From Candidatus Norongarragalinales archaeon (GTDB lineage: Archaea; Micrarchaeota; Micrarchaeia; Norongarragalinales; Norongarragalinaceae): a DNA stretch of 64,000 nt. Made by a program: the position numbers and the translations under genes. The notes under the pieces were generated by a model. That model saw only the letters and a program-made list of their open reading frames with translations. It was not told the DNA's origin and ran no database searches. This document shows, piece by piece, positions 19,248 through 51,054 of the stretch; the first letter of the stretch is position 1; each line of letters starts with the position of its first letter. Location: contig JAWABJ010000001.1 in assembly GCA_038884755.1 (NCBI GenBank), positions 636,953 through 700,952 on the forward strand. The letters are read 5' to 3'.

Positions 19248-19379
19248 TGGGGGATCTGAGATTCGAAGTCCGGAGCTTTTCTTTCTTTTCCAAGGTTTTC
19301 TTTCTTTCGCAAAGAAAGAAAAGCTTCTCAGGTCGCCAGCTCCCAAAGCTGGCAGGATACCAGGCTACCCCAATCCCCC
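19248..19379 (-). tRNA. tRNA-Pro (UGG) with ~59-nt intron inserted between T-stem 5' strand and T-loop (19268-19326)
   Basis: Minus-strand fold: acceptor GGGGGAT/ATCCCCC+A, D GGGT/ATCC, anticodon stem CCAGC/GCTGG loop TTTGGGA (G37), T-stem CTGAG...[intron]...TTCGAAT CTCAG; intron built of TTTCTTTC...GAAAGAAA hairpin repeats. Confidence 0.65.
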
Positions 19380-19496
19380 GTGATTACAAAATTGCGGGCT
19401 GGAGGGAAATAAAACAAGCGGTTTCGCATACGTATTTATTCGCAAAACCTTTTTTCCTTTAAAACGGTTTTTTGGAAAGAGGGGAAAAGACGCGGG

Positions 19497-19829
19497 ATGA
19501 TAGGCGAATCGAGGCAGCCCAGGATAGTTTCCATAGGCAGGCAGCAGAAAAGCTTGATGGACTACCGCGAAGCTGGTGAGTACGTGCCCTACCGCAGGCA
19601 GACGCCGGCGTTTTACGCCGAGGCGAAACAGCTTTTCACCGACAACGAAATAATACTGCTCGCAATTTGGCTCGTTGTCTCTCCTTCCGCGGCGTTGGCG
19701 TACTTGATTTGGATAAAATACGAGCACTTGAGGCTTTTGGCACTGCTGCTGTTTGCGGTCGGAATAATCCACGCAGCCTACCAGTGGCAAGGCTTTTACG
19801 GGTTCGTTAGGAACCTCGCCGGTTTTTGA
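19497..19829 (+). CDS. small integral membrane protein, hypothetical
   Basis: Two predicted TM helices; ORF only. Confidence 0.4.
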   Translation: MIGESRQPRIVSIGRQQKSLMDYREAGEYVPYRRQTPAFYAEAKQLFTDNEIILLAIWLVVSPSAALAYLIWIKYEHLRLLALLLFAVGIIHAAYQWQGFYGFVRNLAGF

Positions 19830-19876
19830 AACGCGAGCGTGGGGTTTAAAGAATTCGCGACACAATTCTTTACGGT

Positions 19877-20207
19877 GGGCCTATAGCTCAGCCTGGACAG
19901 AGCAACTGCCTTCTAAGTCAGGCTTTTCTTTTCACAAAAGAAAAGCCCGACGCGGTAAAAGAAAACTCGGTTTTTCTTTGGCGCGGCGCCAACCGCACCT
20001 TTCTTTTCGTGAAAAAGAAAGGGGCAAGGCAGCAGGAGGTCGGGGGTCCGAAAGGAGGAGAAACCAAGGTTTCTCCTCTCTACGCCTCTTCCTTTCGAGG
20101 AAAGAGAAAGGCGCGTTGCGCAAGAAAAAATAGTTTTTCTTTGGCGGCGCCCTCGCCTTTCTTTTTTCTAAAAAGAAAGGCAAGGCACGGAAATCCCCCT
20201 AGGCCCG
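19877..20207 (+). tRNA. tRNA-Arg (UCU) candidate with two long (~115 and ~140 nt) introns: after anticodon loop (19917-20031) and within T-loop (20051-20190)
   Basis: Exon 1 GGGCCTA TA GCTC AGCCTGGACA GAGC A ACTGC CTTCTAA (19877-19916); exon 2 GCAGG AGGTC GGGGG TCCG (20032-20050); exon 3 AAT CCCCC TAGGCCC G (20191-20207); acceptor 7/7 bp, T-stem GGGGG/CCCCC; both introns end in the same CCTTTCTTTT-N5-AAAAAGAAAGG-GCAAGGCA module. Position 27:43 is A:G, so the anticodon stem has one mismatch. Confidence 0.55.
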
Positions 20208-20262
20208 CTTTTTTGCTGAAGAAAACGCAAGAGTTTTTATCGTTAGGCTGGTTAAGTATGCG

Positions 20263-21009
20263 ATGATAAAACTCAACGTTTTCCCCTTGGATTTGGAGTA
20301 CGACGATTCCGAAAAAAAACTTTACTTCGAGGGAGTCGAACTTTCGCCGAACGTGCGCACTCTCGGCGAAATGTCGAGCGTGGTTTTAGACAAGGTTTTT
20401 TTCGAGAAAGCCGACAAGAAACGCATTCAGTACTACATGTTCAGGGAGATTGCGAAGAAAGGCGACGTCGAGCTTTTCAAAACCCCGCCTTTGGAATTGT
20501 CTTACGACATTACGGTGATTCCCACGCTCGATTTGGGGAGGGAGTTCAACAAAACCCTGGGGCATTACCACCCGAAAAGCCCGTTTGGAGCGCGTTATGC
20601 CGAGATTTACGAAGTGCTCGAGGGTGAAGGGCATTACTTGCTGCAACGCCTTGATGAAAAAACGGGAAACGTTGACGACGTCATGCTTGTGATAGCGAAG
20701 AAAGGCGACAAAGTGGTAGTGCCGAACGGCTATGGGCACATTTCCATAAACCCCAGTTCGAAAACACTGGTTTCCGCAAACATCACGGGCGTTTTCAAGA
20801 GCGAGTACGACCCTTACAGGCTCAAGGGCGGAGGGGCTTATTACGAATTGATAGACGATTCGCTTTCTCCCAACGAAAACTACGCGAACCTTCCGCTCAT
20901 TAAAACGGTCGACGCCATGGACTTGCCTTTGAACCAGCAGTTCGACGGCGACAACATTTACGCGCAGTTCGTCGAAAACCCGACGAAGTTCGACTTCCTG
21001 AAAAAGTGA
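20263..21009 (+). CDS. pgiA: glucose-6-phosphate isomerase, cupin type (archaeal cPGI)
   Basis: Cupin signature TLGHYHPKSPFGARYAEIYEVLEGEGHYLLQ (metal-binding His/Glu) and GYGHISINP. Confidence 0.7.
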   Translation: MIKLNVFPLDLEYDDSEKKLYFEGVELSPNVRTLGEMSSVVLDKVFFEKADKKRIQYYMFREIAKKGDVELFKTPPLELSYDITVIPTLDLGREFNKTLGHYHPKSPFGARYAEIYEVLEGEGHYLLQRLDEKTGNVDDVMLVIAKKGDKVVVPNGYGHISINPSSKTLVSANITGVFKSEYDPYRLKGGGAYYELIDDSLSPNENYANLPLIKTVDAMDLPLNQQFDGDNIYAQFVENPTKFDFLKK

Positions 21010-48490: not shown

Positions 48491-49060
48491 ACGACTTAAC
48501 CCTCCTCATGAAGATCTAGCTCGAATGCGACCGAAGTCGCAGCCTCACTAAAACCTCACTTGGATGGCTTGACGGGCGGTGTGTGCAAGGAGCGGGGACA
48601 TATTCACCGCGCGATGATGACACGCGATTACTAGGGATTCCAACTTCATGGGGGCGAGTTTCAGCCCCCAATCTGTACTGGAGTAGGGTTTAGGTGATTG
48701 CCTCCGCCTTTCGGCGTCGGAACACATTGTCCCTACTATTGTATGCCACGTGTGGCCCAGCAGATTCAGGCCATACGGACCTAGCGTCGCCTTCTCCTTC
48801 CTCCCACTTAACGCGGGCAGTCTCCACAGAGTGCCCTCCGAATTGCTTCGAAGGTAGCAACTGTGGACGAAGATCTCGCTCGTTGCACGACTTAACGTGA
48901 CACCTCACGGCACGAGCTGGCGCTGGCCATGCAACACTTCTCGGCTTGTTGGCTAAGATCTTTAGTCTGAGCTTCATACTGCCGTCTCTGCTGGTGAGTT
49001 TCCCGGCGTTGAGTCCAATTGAACCGCAGCATCCACCCCTTGTGGTGCTCCCCCGCCAAT

Positions 49061-49645
49061 TCAGGGGAATAACGCAATCATGTTGGAAAGTCTCTCAAAC
49101 TTTTCTGGATGAAAAGAATGAATTAACGAGTGAAATTTTTTCAAATTCTCTCGTCTTGTTATCCTGAACTGCCAAGCTTCACTCGTAAAAGTCAAGTTTG
49201 TTGGCCGGAATTCTTCGCTTAAGAAAAAATTTCTTAAGAATTCCAGAGGTTCTCTTCCTTTCTGGTCGAATGAAACACACGTTTGGGTTGAATGCTCAGG
49301 ATCTAAAGGCACTCCGCCTTCAGCATCGAAAAAACCGCCGGCATAACACCACAATTCTCGCGGTGTTGCATTGCGAACCGATTCGGGCGTGTTCCAAAAT
49401 TCCTGCGGACAAACGTATCCAGAAAGAGAAACTAACTCTGAAATTGTTTTCTTGCCGTTCAACCTCAAGAGATTATTTCGAAGCCTGCATGAGACTCCGA
49501 AATTCCTTTCGATTATTTCGGCAAGTTTTTCCAGCCAAGCCTCGGACTTTTGATAAATCCGCAATTCGTAATTTTTGGAATCGCGGACTTCGAAGCTGGC
49601 GTCACGGAATGCTCCCAAAAGATAGCACAATTCAGCGTTCATCAT
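49061..49645 (-). CDS. double-motif LAGLIDADG homing endonuclease; stop codon UGA straddles the 3' splice junction
   Basis: Motifs LLGAFRDAS and GGFFDAEGG; 194 aa. Confidence 0.75.
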   Translation of the reverse strand: MMNAELCYLLGAFRDASFEVRDSKNYELRIYQKSEAWLEKLAEIIERNFGVSCRLRNNLLRLNGKKTISELVSLSGYVCPQEFWNTPESVRNATPRELWCYAGGFFDAEGGVPLDPEHSTQTCVSFDQKGREPLEFLRNFFLSEEFRPTNLTFTSEAWQFRITRRENLKKFHSLIHSFHPEKFERLSNMIALFP

Positions 49646-49719
49646 TGGCTCGCACTGAAGCGCGCTTTAAATGTTTTTTGAGAGTAGCTTTCCAGTGTTA
49701 TTTGATTGCGCTATTCCTT
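49062..49719 (-). mobile_element. archaeal BHB-type intron in 16S (between AAACUUAAAGG and AAUUGGCGGGGG; E. coli ~919) carrying a LAGLIDADG ORF
   Basis: ~35-nt imperfect terminal inverted repeat (GGAAUAGCGCAAUCAAAUAACACUGGAAAGCUACUCUC / GAGAGACUUUCCAACAUGAUUGCGUUAUUCC); exon 1 ends in G (not U) and ORF fills intron, arguing against group I. Confidence 0.7.
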
Positions 49720-49957
49720 TCCTTTAAGTTTCAATCTTGCGATCGTACTCCCCAAGCGGCAGACTAAACGTTTTCACTACGGCACTGCAGCAACGCGAAG
49801 TCGCTGCAACGCCAAGTCTGCATCATTTACTGCACAGGACTACTCGGGTATCTAATCCGATTCGCTACCCTGGCCTTCGTTCCTCACCGTCAGACGTGTT
49901 TTGTCCAAGCGCTTTCGCCACCGATGGTCCTCTAAGGATTACAGGATTGTAAGCACA

Positions 49958-49997
49958 GTTTTTCTTTACTCAATTTTTCTTTCGTAAAGAAAAATTG
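49958..49997. repeat. hairpin-repeat insertion in 16S (within the ~720 region): UUUUUCUUUACUCAAUUUUUCUUUCGUAAAGAAAAAUUG
   Basis: Interrupts conserved GGGGUGAAAUCCUGUAAUCC context; near-identical to 23S copy. Confidence 0.7.
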
Positions 49998-51054
49998 TTT
50001 TACTCCTCCCCCTAAAGTACCCTTGGACTCCCCCACTCTCAAGCTCGGTAGTATTCCCTGCACGCCCATCCGTTGAGCGGATGGATTTCACAGGAAACTT
50101 GCCAAGCCGGCTACGGACGCTTTAAGCTCAATATTCGTGGATACCACTAGTTCTACCTGTGTTACCGCGGCGGCTGGCACAGGATTTACCCAGAACTTAT
50201 TCCACCGGCTATTCAAGCCGGTTAAAAGCCGACCTTTCGATCGGCACTCGGACTACCCCCATCACGCTTTCGCGCATTGTGGAATTTTCGCGCCTGCTGC
50301 ATCCCGTAGGACTCGGGCCCTTGTCTCAGTGCCCGTCTCGGGGCTCCTACTCCCATAGCCCCTACTGATTATAGGTTTGGTGGGCCGTTACCTCACCAAC
50401 AGCCTAATCAGCCGCAGTGCCATCTTACAGCAAACTTGCTCCAATTCGCTTTTTTTTCAACCGCCAACCGTTCCAGGTACGGCGGCCTATGGCGTGTTAC
50501 CCGCACTTTCGCGCGGTTATTCGCCTCTGTAAGGTAGGTTCACTACGTGTTACTGAGCCGTTTGCCGGGATTACAAGTGTAATCCCCAAACTTGCATGGC
50601 TTAGTCGTAATCCGATAGCAGTATCCTCCAGCAGGATCAACTGGTGTTGTCCTAACACCCGATTCGGGTGTTAGGACGGAGATCGCAAGAACTAACTTAT
50701 CTTGCGGAATGAGCGTCTTGCATAGAGTTATTTGCTCTCTTCTTCCCCTGCGTCGAACCCAAATGAGAATCGCTTGCCATCAGAGATGGAAGAACATAAT
50801 TCTTTGTTTGAGTGCCCATGATCGCTGTAGTAGTAAAAATAGCAACGCCAGTCATGGATTCACGCAGAGGCGAAAAACGCGATAGCAAGGCGTTTCTACG
50901 CTCTCAGATAAAGTCTTCTATGGCTTGCCGGGAACTACAGCATTAGAAAAAACACTCTTTCCGAAGAAAGAATGCCTTTATTAAATCGTCGAAAGGAGTT
51001 TAAAAAGCTTTTGAATCAACCGCGGGATGTAGCGCTTTGCAAGCGAAACAAATA

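Follow-up and report, generated by a model that had tools for sequence, protein, structure and literature searches.

The question raised by this locus is why one short hairpin, with a pyrimidine tract as its 5' arm and a purine tract as its 3' arm, recurs inside the genes of several classes of stable RNA. The locus is a 64,000-nt stretch (hereafter, the window) of contig JAWABJ010000001.1 (assembly GCA_038884755.1), and its host is a Norongarragalinales archaeon of the class Micrarchaeia (DPANN group). The window contains a ribosomal RNA (rRNA) operon, an RNase P RNA gene and several transfer RNA (tRNA) genes. An initial annotation had listed ten copies of the hairpin, which it suggested to be a family of mobile mini-elements or mini-introns, or else a common hairpin for protein binding. 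The copies probably constitute a lineage-specific family of small bulge-helix-bulge (BHB) introns and related precursor spacers of stable-RNA genes, all built from one low-complexity module. The four rRNA copies, those of tRNA-Pro and tRNA-Glu, and the two of tRNA-Arg are best read as whole BHB mini-introns. The insertions of the family are non-coding and 45-140 bases long.

Census of the hairpin family

Perfect hairpins of at least 9 bp number 19 in the window, compared with a mean of 2.3 and a maximum of 6 in 40 dinucleotide-type shuffles. Those with a pyrimidine 5' arm number 12, against 0.5 expected and no more than 2 in the same shuffles. With both counts so far above the shuffles, random low complexity does not account for this class of hairpin, as had been supposed at the outset. 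All 12 pyrimidine-armed hairpins lie inside stable-RNA genes, their introns or their spacers (together some 15% of the window), and neither the hairpin scan nor a profile hidden Markov model (HMM) detected family copies in the ordinary intergenic or coding DNA of the window.

The ten copies listed initially are all real: each is a perfect 10-13 bp hairpin with a loop of 3-5 nt, a pyrimidine 5' arm and a purine 3' arm. Two further copies had been overlooked, one in the large-subunit (LSU) rRNA gene (43132-43178) and one in internal transcribed spacer 1 (ITS1; 48115-48157). The hairpins exist where they had been placed, except that the pair 20010-20035 covers only the 3' half of a hairpin located at 19998-20022. 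The pattern TTTCTTTC-N3-5-GAAAGAAA, under which the family had been named, has only two literal matches (0 expected), and the family is looser than that name implies. The host genes were assigned correctly, as judged by Rfam matches (the small-subunit (SSU) and LSU rRNA, RNase P RNA and tRNA-Ala genes, and the tRNA-Glu gene with its intron) together with ARAGORN calls made after in-silico removal of the tRNA introns.

Module anatomy and kinship among copies

In the RNA sense the copies share a common layout, which consists of a U/C tract (Y), a loop of 3-5 nt, an A/G tract (R1), a short spacer and a second A/G tract (R2). Y is complementary to R1, and R2 is also able to pair with Y. The Y:R1 stems are perfect palindromes of 10-14 bp that contain no G-U pairs, while the loop sequences vary freely (GCG, ACG, GGG, GAG, CAC, UCU, AGG). 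Three subtypes, unlike one another outside the Y/R tracts, were distinguished. Type A has an invariant core, AAGAAAAAU-NN-AGUAAAGAAA, in ten copies from four contexts, and by alignment it comprises the inserts SSU690, LSU-a and LSU-b of the rRNA genes, the tRNA-Ala trailers and a tRNA-Ala(GGC) intron. Type B (AAGC-Y...R1-CCUUGG-R2) comprises the tRNA-Pro intron, the LSU-c insert and an intron found in a relative (L008) at the LSU-a site. Type C (Y-R1-AUC-R2) comprises the copies in P8 of RNase P RNA and in ITS1.

The closest comparisons come from L008, L032 and L074, three contigs of a single Micrarchaeota assembly (RIFCSPHIGHO2_12_FULL_52_14) that were found by a pattern search with the module; the other matches of that search were mostly chance matches in AT-rich bacteria. 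L008 carries a co-linear rRNA operon which is 90-98% identical to that of the window (SSU approximately 98%). A metagenome scan with a 20-mer adjoining LSU-b yielded 32 LSU loci at various distances, and contigs syntenic with the window were obtained through homologues of the alanyl-tRNA synthetase encoded beside the RNase P RNA gene (protein identity 89% for L148/L149, 82% for L150 and 78% for L151).

A profile HMM of type A gave full-length matches in the window at 44519-44555, 46024-46059, 47932-47972 and 49960-49995. Its remaining full-length matches were restricted to loci of a narrow clade, with none in more distant relatives, and every match was in the RNA sense. The perfect short-loop hairpins of the family are confined to the same narrow clade. 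The introns SSU690 and LSU-b are identical at 35 of 38 positions, exactly the value initially reported for the copies at 49958 and 44518. In the ten-copy alignment, compensatory changes are seen at the two outermost Y:R1 pairs (C-G/U-A/G-C, then A-U/G-C); this covariation was read directly, as RNAalifold returned no structure from the MAFFT alignment of the ten copies, in which the stems are out of register. A triple helix of Y, R1 and R2 was rejected on strand polarity: R2 is a direct and not a mirror copy of R1, so only short shifted triplex registers would be possible. No box C/D motifs were seen inside the introns, and a reading as C/D-box small RNAs was dropped.

Fit of the insertion sites to BHB geometry

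The BHB motif is described as a 4-bp central helix between two 3-nt bulges on opposite strands, the two cuts having the same relative position (PMC7714728, PMC3239211). Comparison with sister genomes revealed insert-free alleles at seven sites of the family, the RNase P RNA gene included. In the canonical geometry at tRNA position 37/38, cleavage follows the second nucleotide of either bulge and is thus 2 nt downstream of the respective central-helix strand. For six sites (SSU690, LSU-a, LSU-b, LSU-c, tRNA-Glu and intron 2 of tRNA-Arg), 4-mers were examined at registers -3 to +3 for every junction placement allowed by the insert-free alleles. This register test was used in place of a strict BHB scanner, which missed motifs derived by hand because single mismatches break the contiguity of its helices. 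A strict scan with G-U pairs allowed was discarded as well, having produced about 490 candidates per strand in the window and thus no discriminating power.

A perfect 4-bp Watson-Crick helix between exon and intron, exactly 2 nt before both junctions, was found at five of the six sites, and three of the four pairs were found at the tRNA-Glu site. One strand of the central helix is provided by the 5' exon and the other by the 3' end of the intron. Near-strict 3-4-3 geometry is displayed by LSU-b, tRNA-Pro and tRNA-Glu, the last two with one mismatch in the central helix and with Y:R2 as the inner helix. The inserts interrupt conserved mature tRNA or rRNA sequence and their removal restores the consensus, as is the case for BHB introns, and near-identical introns occupy different sites and genes from which they are missing in relatives, as in a transposing BHB family. 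With the enrichment in RNA genes (12/12) and the presence/absence variation both found, the idea of a mobile mini-element or mini-intron family was well founded. The initial annotation was also right that there are copies inside rRNA genes, although the inserted unit is not the hairpin but what appears to be a whole mini-intron of 47-64 nt.

Putative mini-introns of the rRNA genes

The rRNA operon is encoded on the minus strand, with Rfam matches for SSU (50647-48443), tRNA-Ala(UGC) (48053-47981) and LSU (from 47722). The SSU and LSU matches are some 700 nt longer than their models, indicating that both genes are heavily interrupted.

SSU690 (49947..49997, minus strand) is a putative 51-nt mini-intron of type A in the 690 loop of helix 23 (about E. 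coli position 696, Rfam model position 636), and is represented by a 52-nt insert in the Rfam alignment. It is missing from the L008 SSU gene, where it corresponds to a precise 51-nt gap. Of the three junction placements allowed, one gives all four pairs of the central helix (GUAA/UUAC) at the canonical register. As the insert interrupts the universally conserved 690 loop, it would have to be removed, and its retention is implausible.

Three inserts are located in the LSU gene, all on the minus strand. LSU-a (46002..46065), a 64-nt mini-intron of type A, lies near E. coli 23S position 1615 in the conserved stretch ACCGACA|GGUGG. Seven relatives have the intron-less allele AGUACAGGUGG at this site, locus L128 has a 53-nt type A intron, and L008 has a 44-nt intron of type B. 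At the canonical register, the central helix (CAGU/ACUG) has all four pairs. The insert splits a conserved single-stranded stretch (ACCGACACAGGUGG), which makes a retained insert implausible. LSU-b (44510..44556), a 47-nt type A insert near E. coli 23S position 2362, reads UGAUUUUUCUUU-ACG-AAAGAAAAAUCA-AGUAAAGAAAAAUC-UGUU-UU. It is present in L008 and missing from L128 and from all other metagenome LSU genes covering the site (most of the 32 loci); among these, the genes whose flanks match have the sequence ...CUUAACAAAAUGGGUC... Its junction is unique, and the helix AACA/UGUU is perfect at register +0 only (within +/-3 nt). The BHB of LSU-b is close to textbook: an outer helix of 9 bp is followed by a U-U mismatch and the central helix with its 3-nt bulges, and Y and R2 pair over 13 bp as the inner helix. 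The full BHB fold exceeds the minimum free energy by 1.2 kcal/mol; the fold with Y:R1 is less favourable by 6.7 kcal/mol. LSU-c (43132..43178) is a 47-nt mini-intron of type B near E. coli 23S position 2753, in the hairpin loop GCAU|CUAAG. It is missing from L008 and ten other relatives; a copy in L128 has diverged with its central-helix pairing kept (GCCU to GUCU). Here too only one junction placement is possible, and register +0 alone (within +/-3 nt) gives a perfect helix (AGGC/GCCU). The predicted exon joins after splicing are ...GGAGUAAAA|UCCUGU..., ...UUAACAAA|AUGGGUC... and ...GAAGGCAU|CUAAGG...

Proposed introns of the tRNA genes

Three tRNAs of the window were missed by ARAGORN, and an E-value search of the tRNA-Pro/Arg region against Rfam yielded only noise (e.g. 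microRNA families). When the proposed introns are removed in silico, ARAGORN calls tRNA-Pro(UGG), tRNA-Arg(UCU) and tRNA-Glu(UUC). The tRNA-Pro(UGG) gene (about 19248-19380) has a 59-nt intron of type B at position 53/54 (19268..19326, minus strand), in the order AAGC-Y-GCG-R1-CCUUGG-R2-GCU followed by CCGG-AC. Its BHB, derived by hand from the sequences and the predicted fold, is canonical, with three of four pairs in the central helix (CCUG/CCGG), a 16-bp Y:R2 helix adjoining the cut sites and a 3-bp outer helix (CGA/UCG). The tRNA-Glu(UUC) gene (27491-27631, an Rfam tRNA match with an insert) has a 66-nt intron at 37/38 (27526..27591, minus strand), consisting of Y, a GCG loop, R1, a CCUCGAC spacer and R2. 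Its central helix (CUUU/AUGG) has three of four pairs at the canonical register, and the minimum-energy fold pairs Y with R2. An intron-less allele is found in L151 and a diverged homologous intron in L150.

The tRNA-Arg(UCU) gene (plus strand; exons 19877-19915, 20031-20052 and 20194-20207) contains two introns. Intron 1 (19916..20030, 115 nt at 37/38) has Y-R hairpins at 19921-19947 and 19998-20022, and the approximately 80 nt at its 3' end are homologous to intron 2 of the same gene. L150 has a homologous, shorter intron (about 57 nt) at the same site, whose hairpin differs from that of the window by a compensatory change of G-C to A-U (GGC..GCC vs GAC..GUC). Intron 2 (20053..20193, 141 nt at 59/60 in the T-loop) has a Y-R hairpin at 20155-20181 and two R-Y hairpins (20055-20078 and 20122-20141). 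The L150 gene is without intron 2 and its T arm is intact (GGGGG-UCCGAAU-CCCCC); with only intron 1 present there, intron 2 of the window represents an insertion. At the canonical register its central helix (UCCG/CGGA) has all four pairs, and the outer helix is supplied by the T stem; as there is no adjacent inner helix, it belongs to the relaxed hBH type.

Copies in trailers, ITS1 and RNase P RNA

The initial annotation had also placed copies in the internal transcribed spacer (ITS) and in RNase P RNA. Both are present, although the first is a tRNA trailer and the second an insertion in P8 without a BHB. The ITS copy (47906..47980, minus strand, type A) directly follows the 3' end of tRNA-Ala(UGC) (47981-48053) and is its 3' trailer, not an intron. 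Homologous trailers follow tRNA-Ala in the ITS of L008 and L128, in L032 (CGC) and in L074 (GGC). In L128 the trailer (UUGAUUUUUCUUUAGGAAAGAAAAAUCAAGUAAAGAAAA) differs little from the LSU-b intron, and trailers and introns are thereby linked by descent. Downstream of tRNA-Ala(CGC) in L032 (2983-3159) is a tandem array of U/C-tract units with periods of 31, 42 and 70, indicating that the module is prone to tandem amplification. In L074, the 5' leader of a tRNA-Val is filled by a hairpin of the same kind.

The ITS1 hairpin (48115..48157, minus strand, type C) reads CAAACUUUUUU-UCG-AAAAAAGUUUG and continues with AUC-AAAAAAG. Its Y-R1-AUC-R2 order matches that of the RNase P copy, and the corresponding stretch of ITS1 in L008 has a different sequence. 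The RNase P RNA gene (33562-33876, minus strand; Rfam) adjoins the alanyl-tRNA synthetase gene. According to the Rfam RNaseP_arch alignment, its insertion (33762..33801, minus strand, type C) lies in P8 and is composed of Y (GAACUUUCUUU), a GAG loop, R1 (AAAGAAAGUUC), an AAUC spacer and R2 (AAAGAAAG), the last overlapping the former loop and 3' strand of P8. P8 is a clean GCCUUUGC-GAAA-GCAAAGGC in L150 and a short hairpin in L116 and L125; the window has about 32 nt extra. Splicing of this copy was considered and rejected. It is probably retained in the mature RNA, since no BHB was found and no pair of cuts restores an L150-like P8.

In the RNase P RNA of L148/L149 (upstream of alaS; L148 approximately 2036-2360), a different 28-nt element, GCGAGUGCGCAAGCACGAGCUUUU(U)GCAG, occurs twice, in the P8 and P12 loops. 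The RNase P RNA loops of this clade seem to have been repeatedly colonised by small hairpin elements. An A-rich tract of 40 nt on the plus strand (33958-33997; T-rich on the strand of the RNase P RNA) lies approximately 80-120 nt upstream of the 5' end of this RNA and may be a terminator or promoter region.

Proposed mechanism and alternative explanations

Under the reading as BHB introns, four nucleotides near the 3' end of the intron would pair in the precursor with four nucleotides of the 5' exon and thus form the central helix; Y would form the inner helix with R2 or with an outer intron segment, and a helix of the host RNA would serve as the outer helix. The archaeal splicing endonuclease would cut 2 nt downstream of each central-helix strand, after which an RNA ligase would join the exons, so that the rRNA and tRNA inserts are predicted to be excised. 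BHB introns in general are removed by EndA, with RtcB joining the exons, and the intron RNA is often circular. The Y:R1 hairpin may be an alternative fold that competes with the splice-competent Y:R2 pairing. That pairing has been kept through sequence change in LSU-c, in tRNA-Arg and at the base of the hairpin supports the reading as BHB introns. New copies presumably arise when an existing module is copied into a new site by transposition or conversion, with the tRNA-Ala trailer possibly acting as the source. The presence/absence variation among close relatives suggests that introns have recently been copied from one RNA gene to another. The family is best read as young, with rapid turnover by gain, loss and interior exchange, the latter because types A and B have been swapped at the LSU-a site. 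Template switching at the GAGUAAA repeated in the SSU exon and the module was discounted, as it would not produce the observed order of parts.

Several observations weigh against this reading. Only LSU-b, tRNA-Pro and tRNA-Glu approach strict 3-4-3 geometry; SSU690, LSU-a, LSU-c and intron 2 of tRNA-Arg are relaxed (an internal loop in place of a bulge, or a missing flanking helix), and the strict BHB scanner did not recover these relaxed forms in the candidate regions. In LSU-a, the 4-bp helix of exon and intron has a competitor in a 9-11 bp hairpin internal to the intron. A BHB is lacking in the RNase P, ITS1 and trailer copies, and the term intron does not cover the whole family. Perfect Y:R1 palindromes free of G-U pairs would also be expected from a palindrome process at the DNA level, and the reading leaves unexplained how a new copy gains the 4-nt complement specific to its exon. 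A more far-reaching account would be a selfish element acting at the level of RNA, in which excised or trailer copies would re-enter stable RNAs at sites with a 4-nt complement, by a reversed endonuclease/ligase reaction, and would later be fixed in DNA. This account would also include a bistable switch of the purine tracts, with Y:R1 forming first during transcription and then giving way to the splice-competent BHB with Y:R2. Taken as a whole it appears unlikely. If true, the switch would set when excision occurs with respect to host-RNA folding, and re-entry would provide a transposition route for protein-spliced introns across RNA classes, namely tRNA, rRNA and possibly RNase P RNA.

The palindromes, the tandem amplification after tRNA-Ala(CGC) of L032, the occupation of sites without a BHB (trailers, the L074 tRNA-Val leader, ITS1 and P8 of RNase P RNA) and the different 28-nt element present twice in the RNase P RNA of L148/L149 would all suit a palindromic mini-element moved as DNA by a hairpin-DNA transposase, akin to miniature inverted-repeat transposable elements (MITE), repetitive extragenic palindromes (REP) or palindrome-associated transposable elements (PATE), that would insert widely and of which only spliceable or harmless copies survive in a gene-dense genome. 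However, target-site duplications were looked for at the inserts and none were found, the unique junctions of LSU-b and LSU-c included; every full-length copy is in the RNA sense; and no copies lie in ordinary DNA as far as the window and a few further loci are concerned. Random insertion would rarely supply what each rRNA copy possesses, four exon-complementary nucleotides at the exact BHB register, and immediate spliceability would be needed if the rRNA operon is single-copy. Such an element is therefore regarded as improbable.

The hairpins occur in all kinds of discarded segments (introns, leader, trailers, ITS), show compensatory changes at their base and, in type A, have an invariant AGUAAAGAAA motif. 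These features could suggest a shared binding or processing signal, kept in segments destined for removal, for a protein that acts on the precursors of stable RNAs; an Sm-like protein bound to the U tract and a processing nuclease would be examples. The protein-binding hairpin of the initial annotation gained no positive support, its loops being unconserved and freely variable, and beyond the Y/R tracts the three subtypes are unlike one another; close relatives without the elements at the same sites show that they are dispensable for processing, which makes a common signal very unlikely. It is scarcely credible that the inserts are unspliced expansion segments tolerated in mature rRNA, tRNA and RNase P RNA. 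LSU-b and LSU-c do lie in hairpin loops, but SSU690 splits the 690 loop, LSU-a a conserved single-stranded stretch, and the tRNA copies the anticodon loop and T-loop, and the exact BHB register at five of the six polymorphic sites would be left unexplained. A variable peripheral site, as expected of an expansion segment, makes this plausible only for the RNase P copy, which sits in the P8 loop without a BHB and whose removal cannot restore the P8 of relatives.

Other insertions in the rRNA and tRNA genes

Larger insertions also interrupt the rRNA genes of the window. An insert of approximately 216 nt at E. coli SSU position 1498 (48275-48490, minus strand) matches Rfam Intron_gpI with 51.8 bits (gathering score 50) and is precisely missing from the L008 SSU gene, which is about 98% identical. 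Three large introns on the minus strand contain LAGLIDADG open reading frames (Pfam PF00961 and PF14528): 44985-45709 near LSU/1923, approximately 43290-44090 near LSU/2593 and 49047-49718 near SSU position 911. The first of these is missing from L008, and at the last the L008 intron is offset by a few bases. L008 itself has an intron of about 680 nt at window position 44420 (about LSU/2449) and a 110-nt insert at 49849. A non-coding insert of 202 nt (approximately 44194-44395, minus strand) splits GAGAGUUCAU|AUCGAC at about E. coli 23S position 2477, in the peptidyl-transferase region, and is also present in both L008 and L128. In other relatives the site, apparently an intron hot spot, is either empty or occupied by unrelated inserts with lengths of roughly 65 to over 250 nt.

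The T-loop of tRNA-Arg(UCU), UCCGAAU, has C instead of the near-universal U at position 55, in L150 as in the window. At 29509-29598 (plus strand), ARAGORN predicts tRNA-Glu(ctc); the gene reads as a tRNA with a CAU anticodon and an intron of about 17 nt after the anticodon. The L150 orthologue (approximately 12700-12890) has its intron elsewhere, 5' of the anticodon, and the same CAU tRNA gene is thus interrupted at different places. A second hairpin family, GGAGAAAC-loop-GUUUCUCC with the purine arm first, is found in a tRNA-Lys 3' trailer (window 1870-1890), in intron 2 of tRNA-Arg (20055-20078) and in a tRNA-Met intron of L150 (12775-12798), so that trailers and introns again share a hairpin. 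In the more distant L116, the tRNA-Ala of the ITS (RNA sense, approximately 2604-2710) has a T-loop intron with the tracts UUUUCUUUCUUU / AAAGAAAGAAAA / AAAAGAAAGAAAGG and a perfect UUCA/UGAA central helix; the L117 intron at the same place is unrelated. This Y...R1...R2 arrangement indicates that the architecture is older than the near-identical copies.

Comparison with known intron and repeat families

Short (<50 nt) hairpin-forming BHB introns have been described in the 16S rRNA genes of Thermoproteales (Jay & Inskeep 2015, PMC4496867). The present rRNA introns resemble them in being small, non-coding, hairpin-forming and strain-variable, in occupying conserved rRNA sites with a BHB at the junction, and in sharing their genes with larger LAGLIDADG-encoding introns. 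In Thermoproteales, however, introns at different loci are less than 20% identical, whereas the SSU and LSU introns compared here are about 90% identical, are also related to tRNA introns and trailers, and belong to a DPANN host and not to a crenarchaeon; the Y-R1-R2 layout is not described for the Thermoproteales 16S introns (PMC4496867). Families of similar introns attributed to intron transposition are known from Thermoproteales tRNA genes (Fujishima 2010, as summarised in PMC4090602), and what that summary relates is a reading as recent intron gain with targets defined by the BHB. Those families, as summarised there, are restricted to tRNA genes, unlike the present module, which also occurs in rRNA introns, tRNA-Ala trailers, ITS1 and P8 of RNase P RNA and includes two related introns within one tRNA-Arg gene.

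In the Micrarchaeota, passages of Fujishima et al. 2011 (PMC3239211) on ARMAN-2 (Candidatus Micrarchaeum acidiphilum) report that its epsilon2 endonuclease cuts both strict hBHBh' and relaxed hBH motifs in vitro and that its tRNA introns are found at 53/54 (tRNA-Pro) and 59/60, the latter of the hBH type. The positions 53/54 and 59/60 and the mixture of strict and relaxed motifs are repeated here; those passages concern tRNA genes and the enzyme, and the shared module, the rRNA mini-introns and the strain polymorphism are features of the present family. Group I introns are present together with BHB introns in rRNA genes of Micrarchaeota, and SSU/1498 is a group I site (Nawrocki, Jones & Eddy 2018, PMC6125680). 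The window has inserts at SSU/1498, near LSU/1923 and near LSU/2593, and these group I and LAGLIDADG introns share the rRNA genes of the family and are likewise polymorphic between the window and L008. They are about 200-750 nt long and self-splicing or endonuclease-encoding, in contrast to the non-coding family of 45-140 nt with BHB geometry. With REP, MITE and PATE elements the family has in common that it is short, non-coding, hairpin-forming, multi-copy and prone to tandem amplification; such elements lie mostly between genes, in either orientation, and are accompanied by target duplications or fixed target motifs, unlike the present copies, which are sense-only, located at stable-RNA loci and free of duplications. 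No report was found in the literature of one module common to rRNA introns, tRNA introns, tRNA trailers and RNase P RNA.

Significance

In practical terms, callers of rRNA and tRNA genes fail on inserts of this kind, which can also interrupt the 16S primer sites used in surveys of DPANN archaea. The gain of protein-spliced introns in archaea is an open question, with intron transposition so far inferred only among tRNA genes. The clade to which this archaeon belongs appears to have been caught in the act, having nearly identical mini-introns in 16S, 23S and tRNA genes as well as in trailers, with clean alleles in close relatives. Each of its polymorphic junctions can be compared with the BHB rule. 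It may offer a system in which the spread of BHB introns, the exchange of intron sequence between rRNA and tRNA genes, and the control of splicing by alternative pairing within the intron can be tested.

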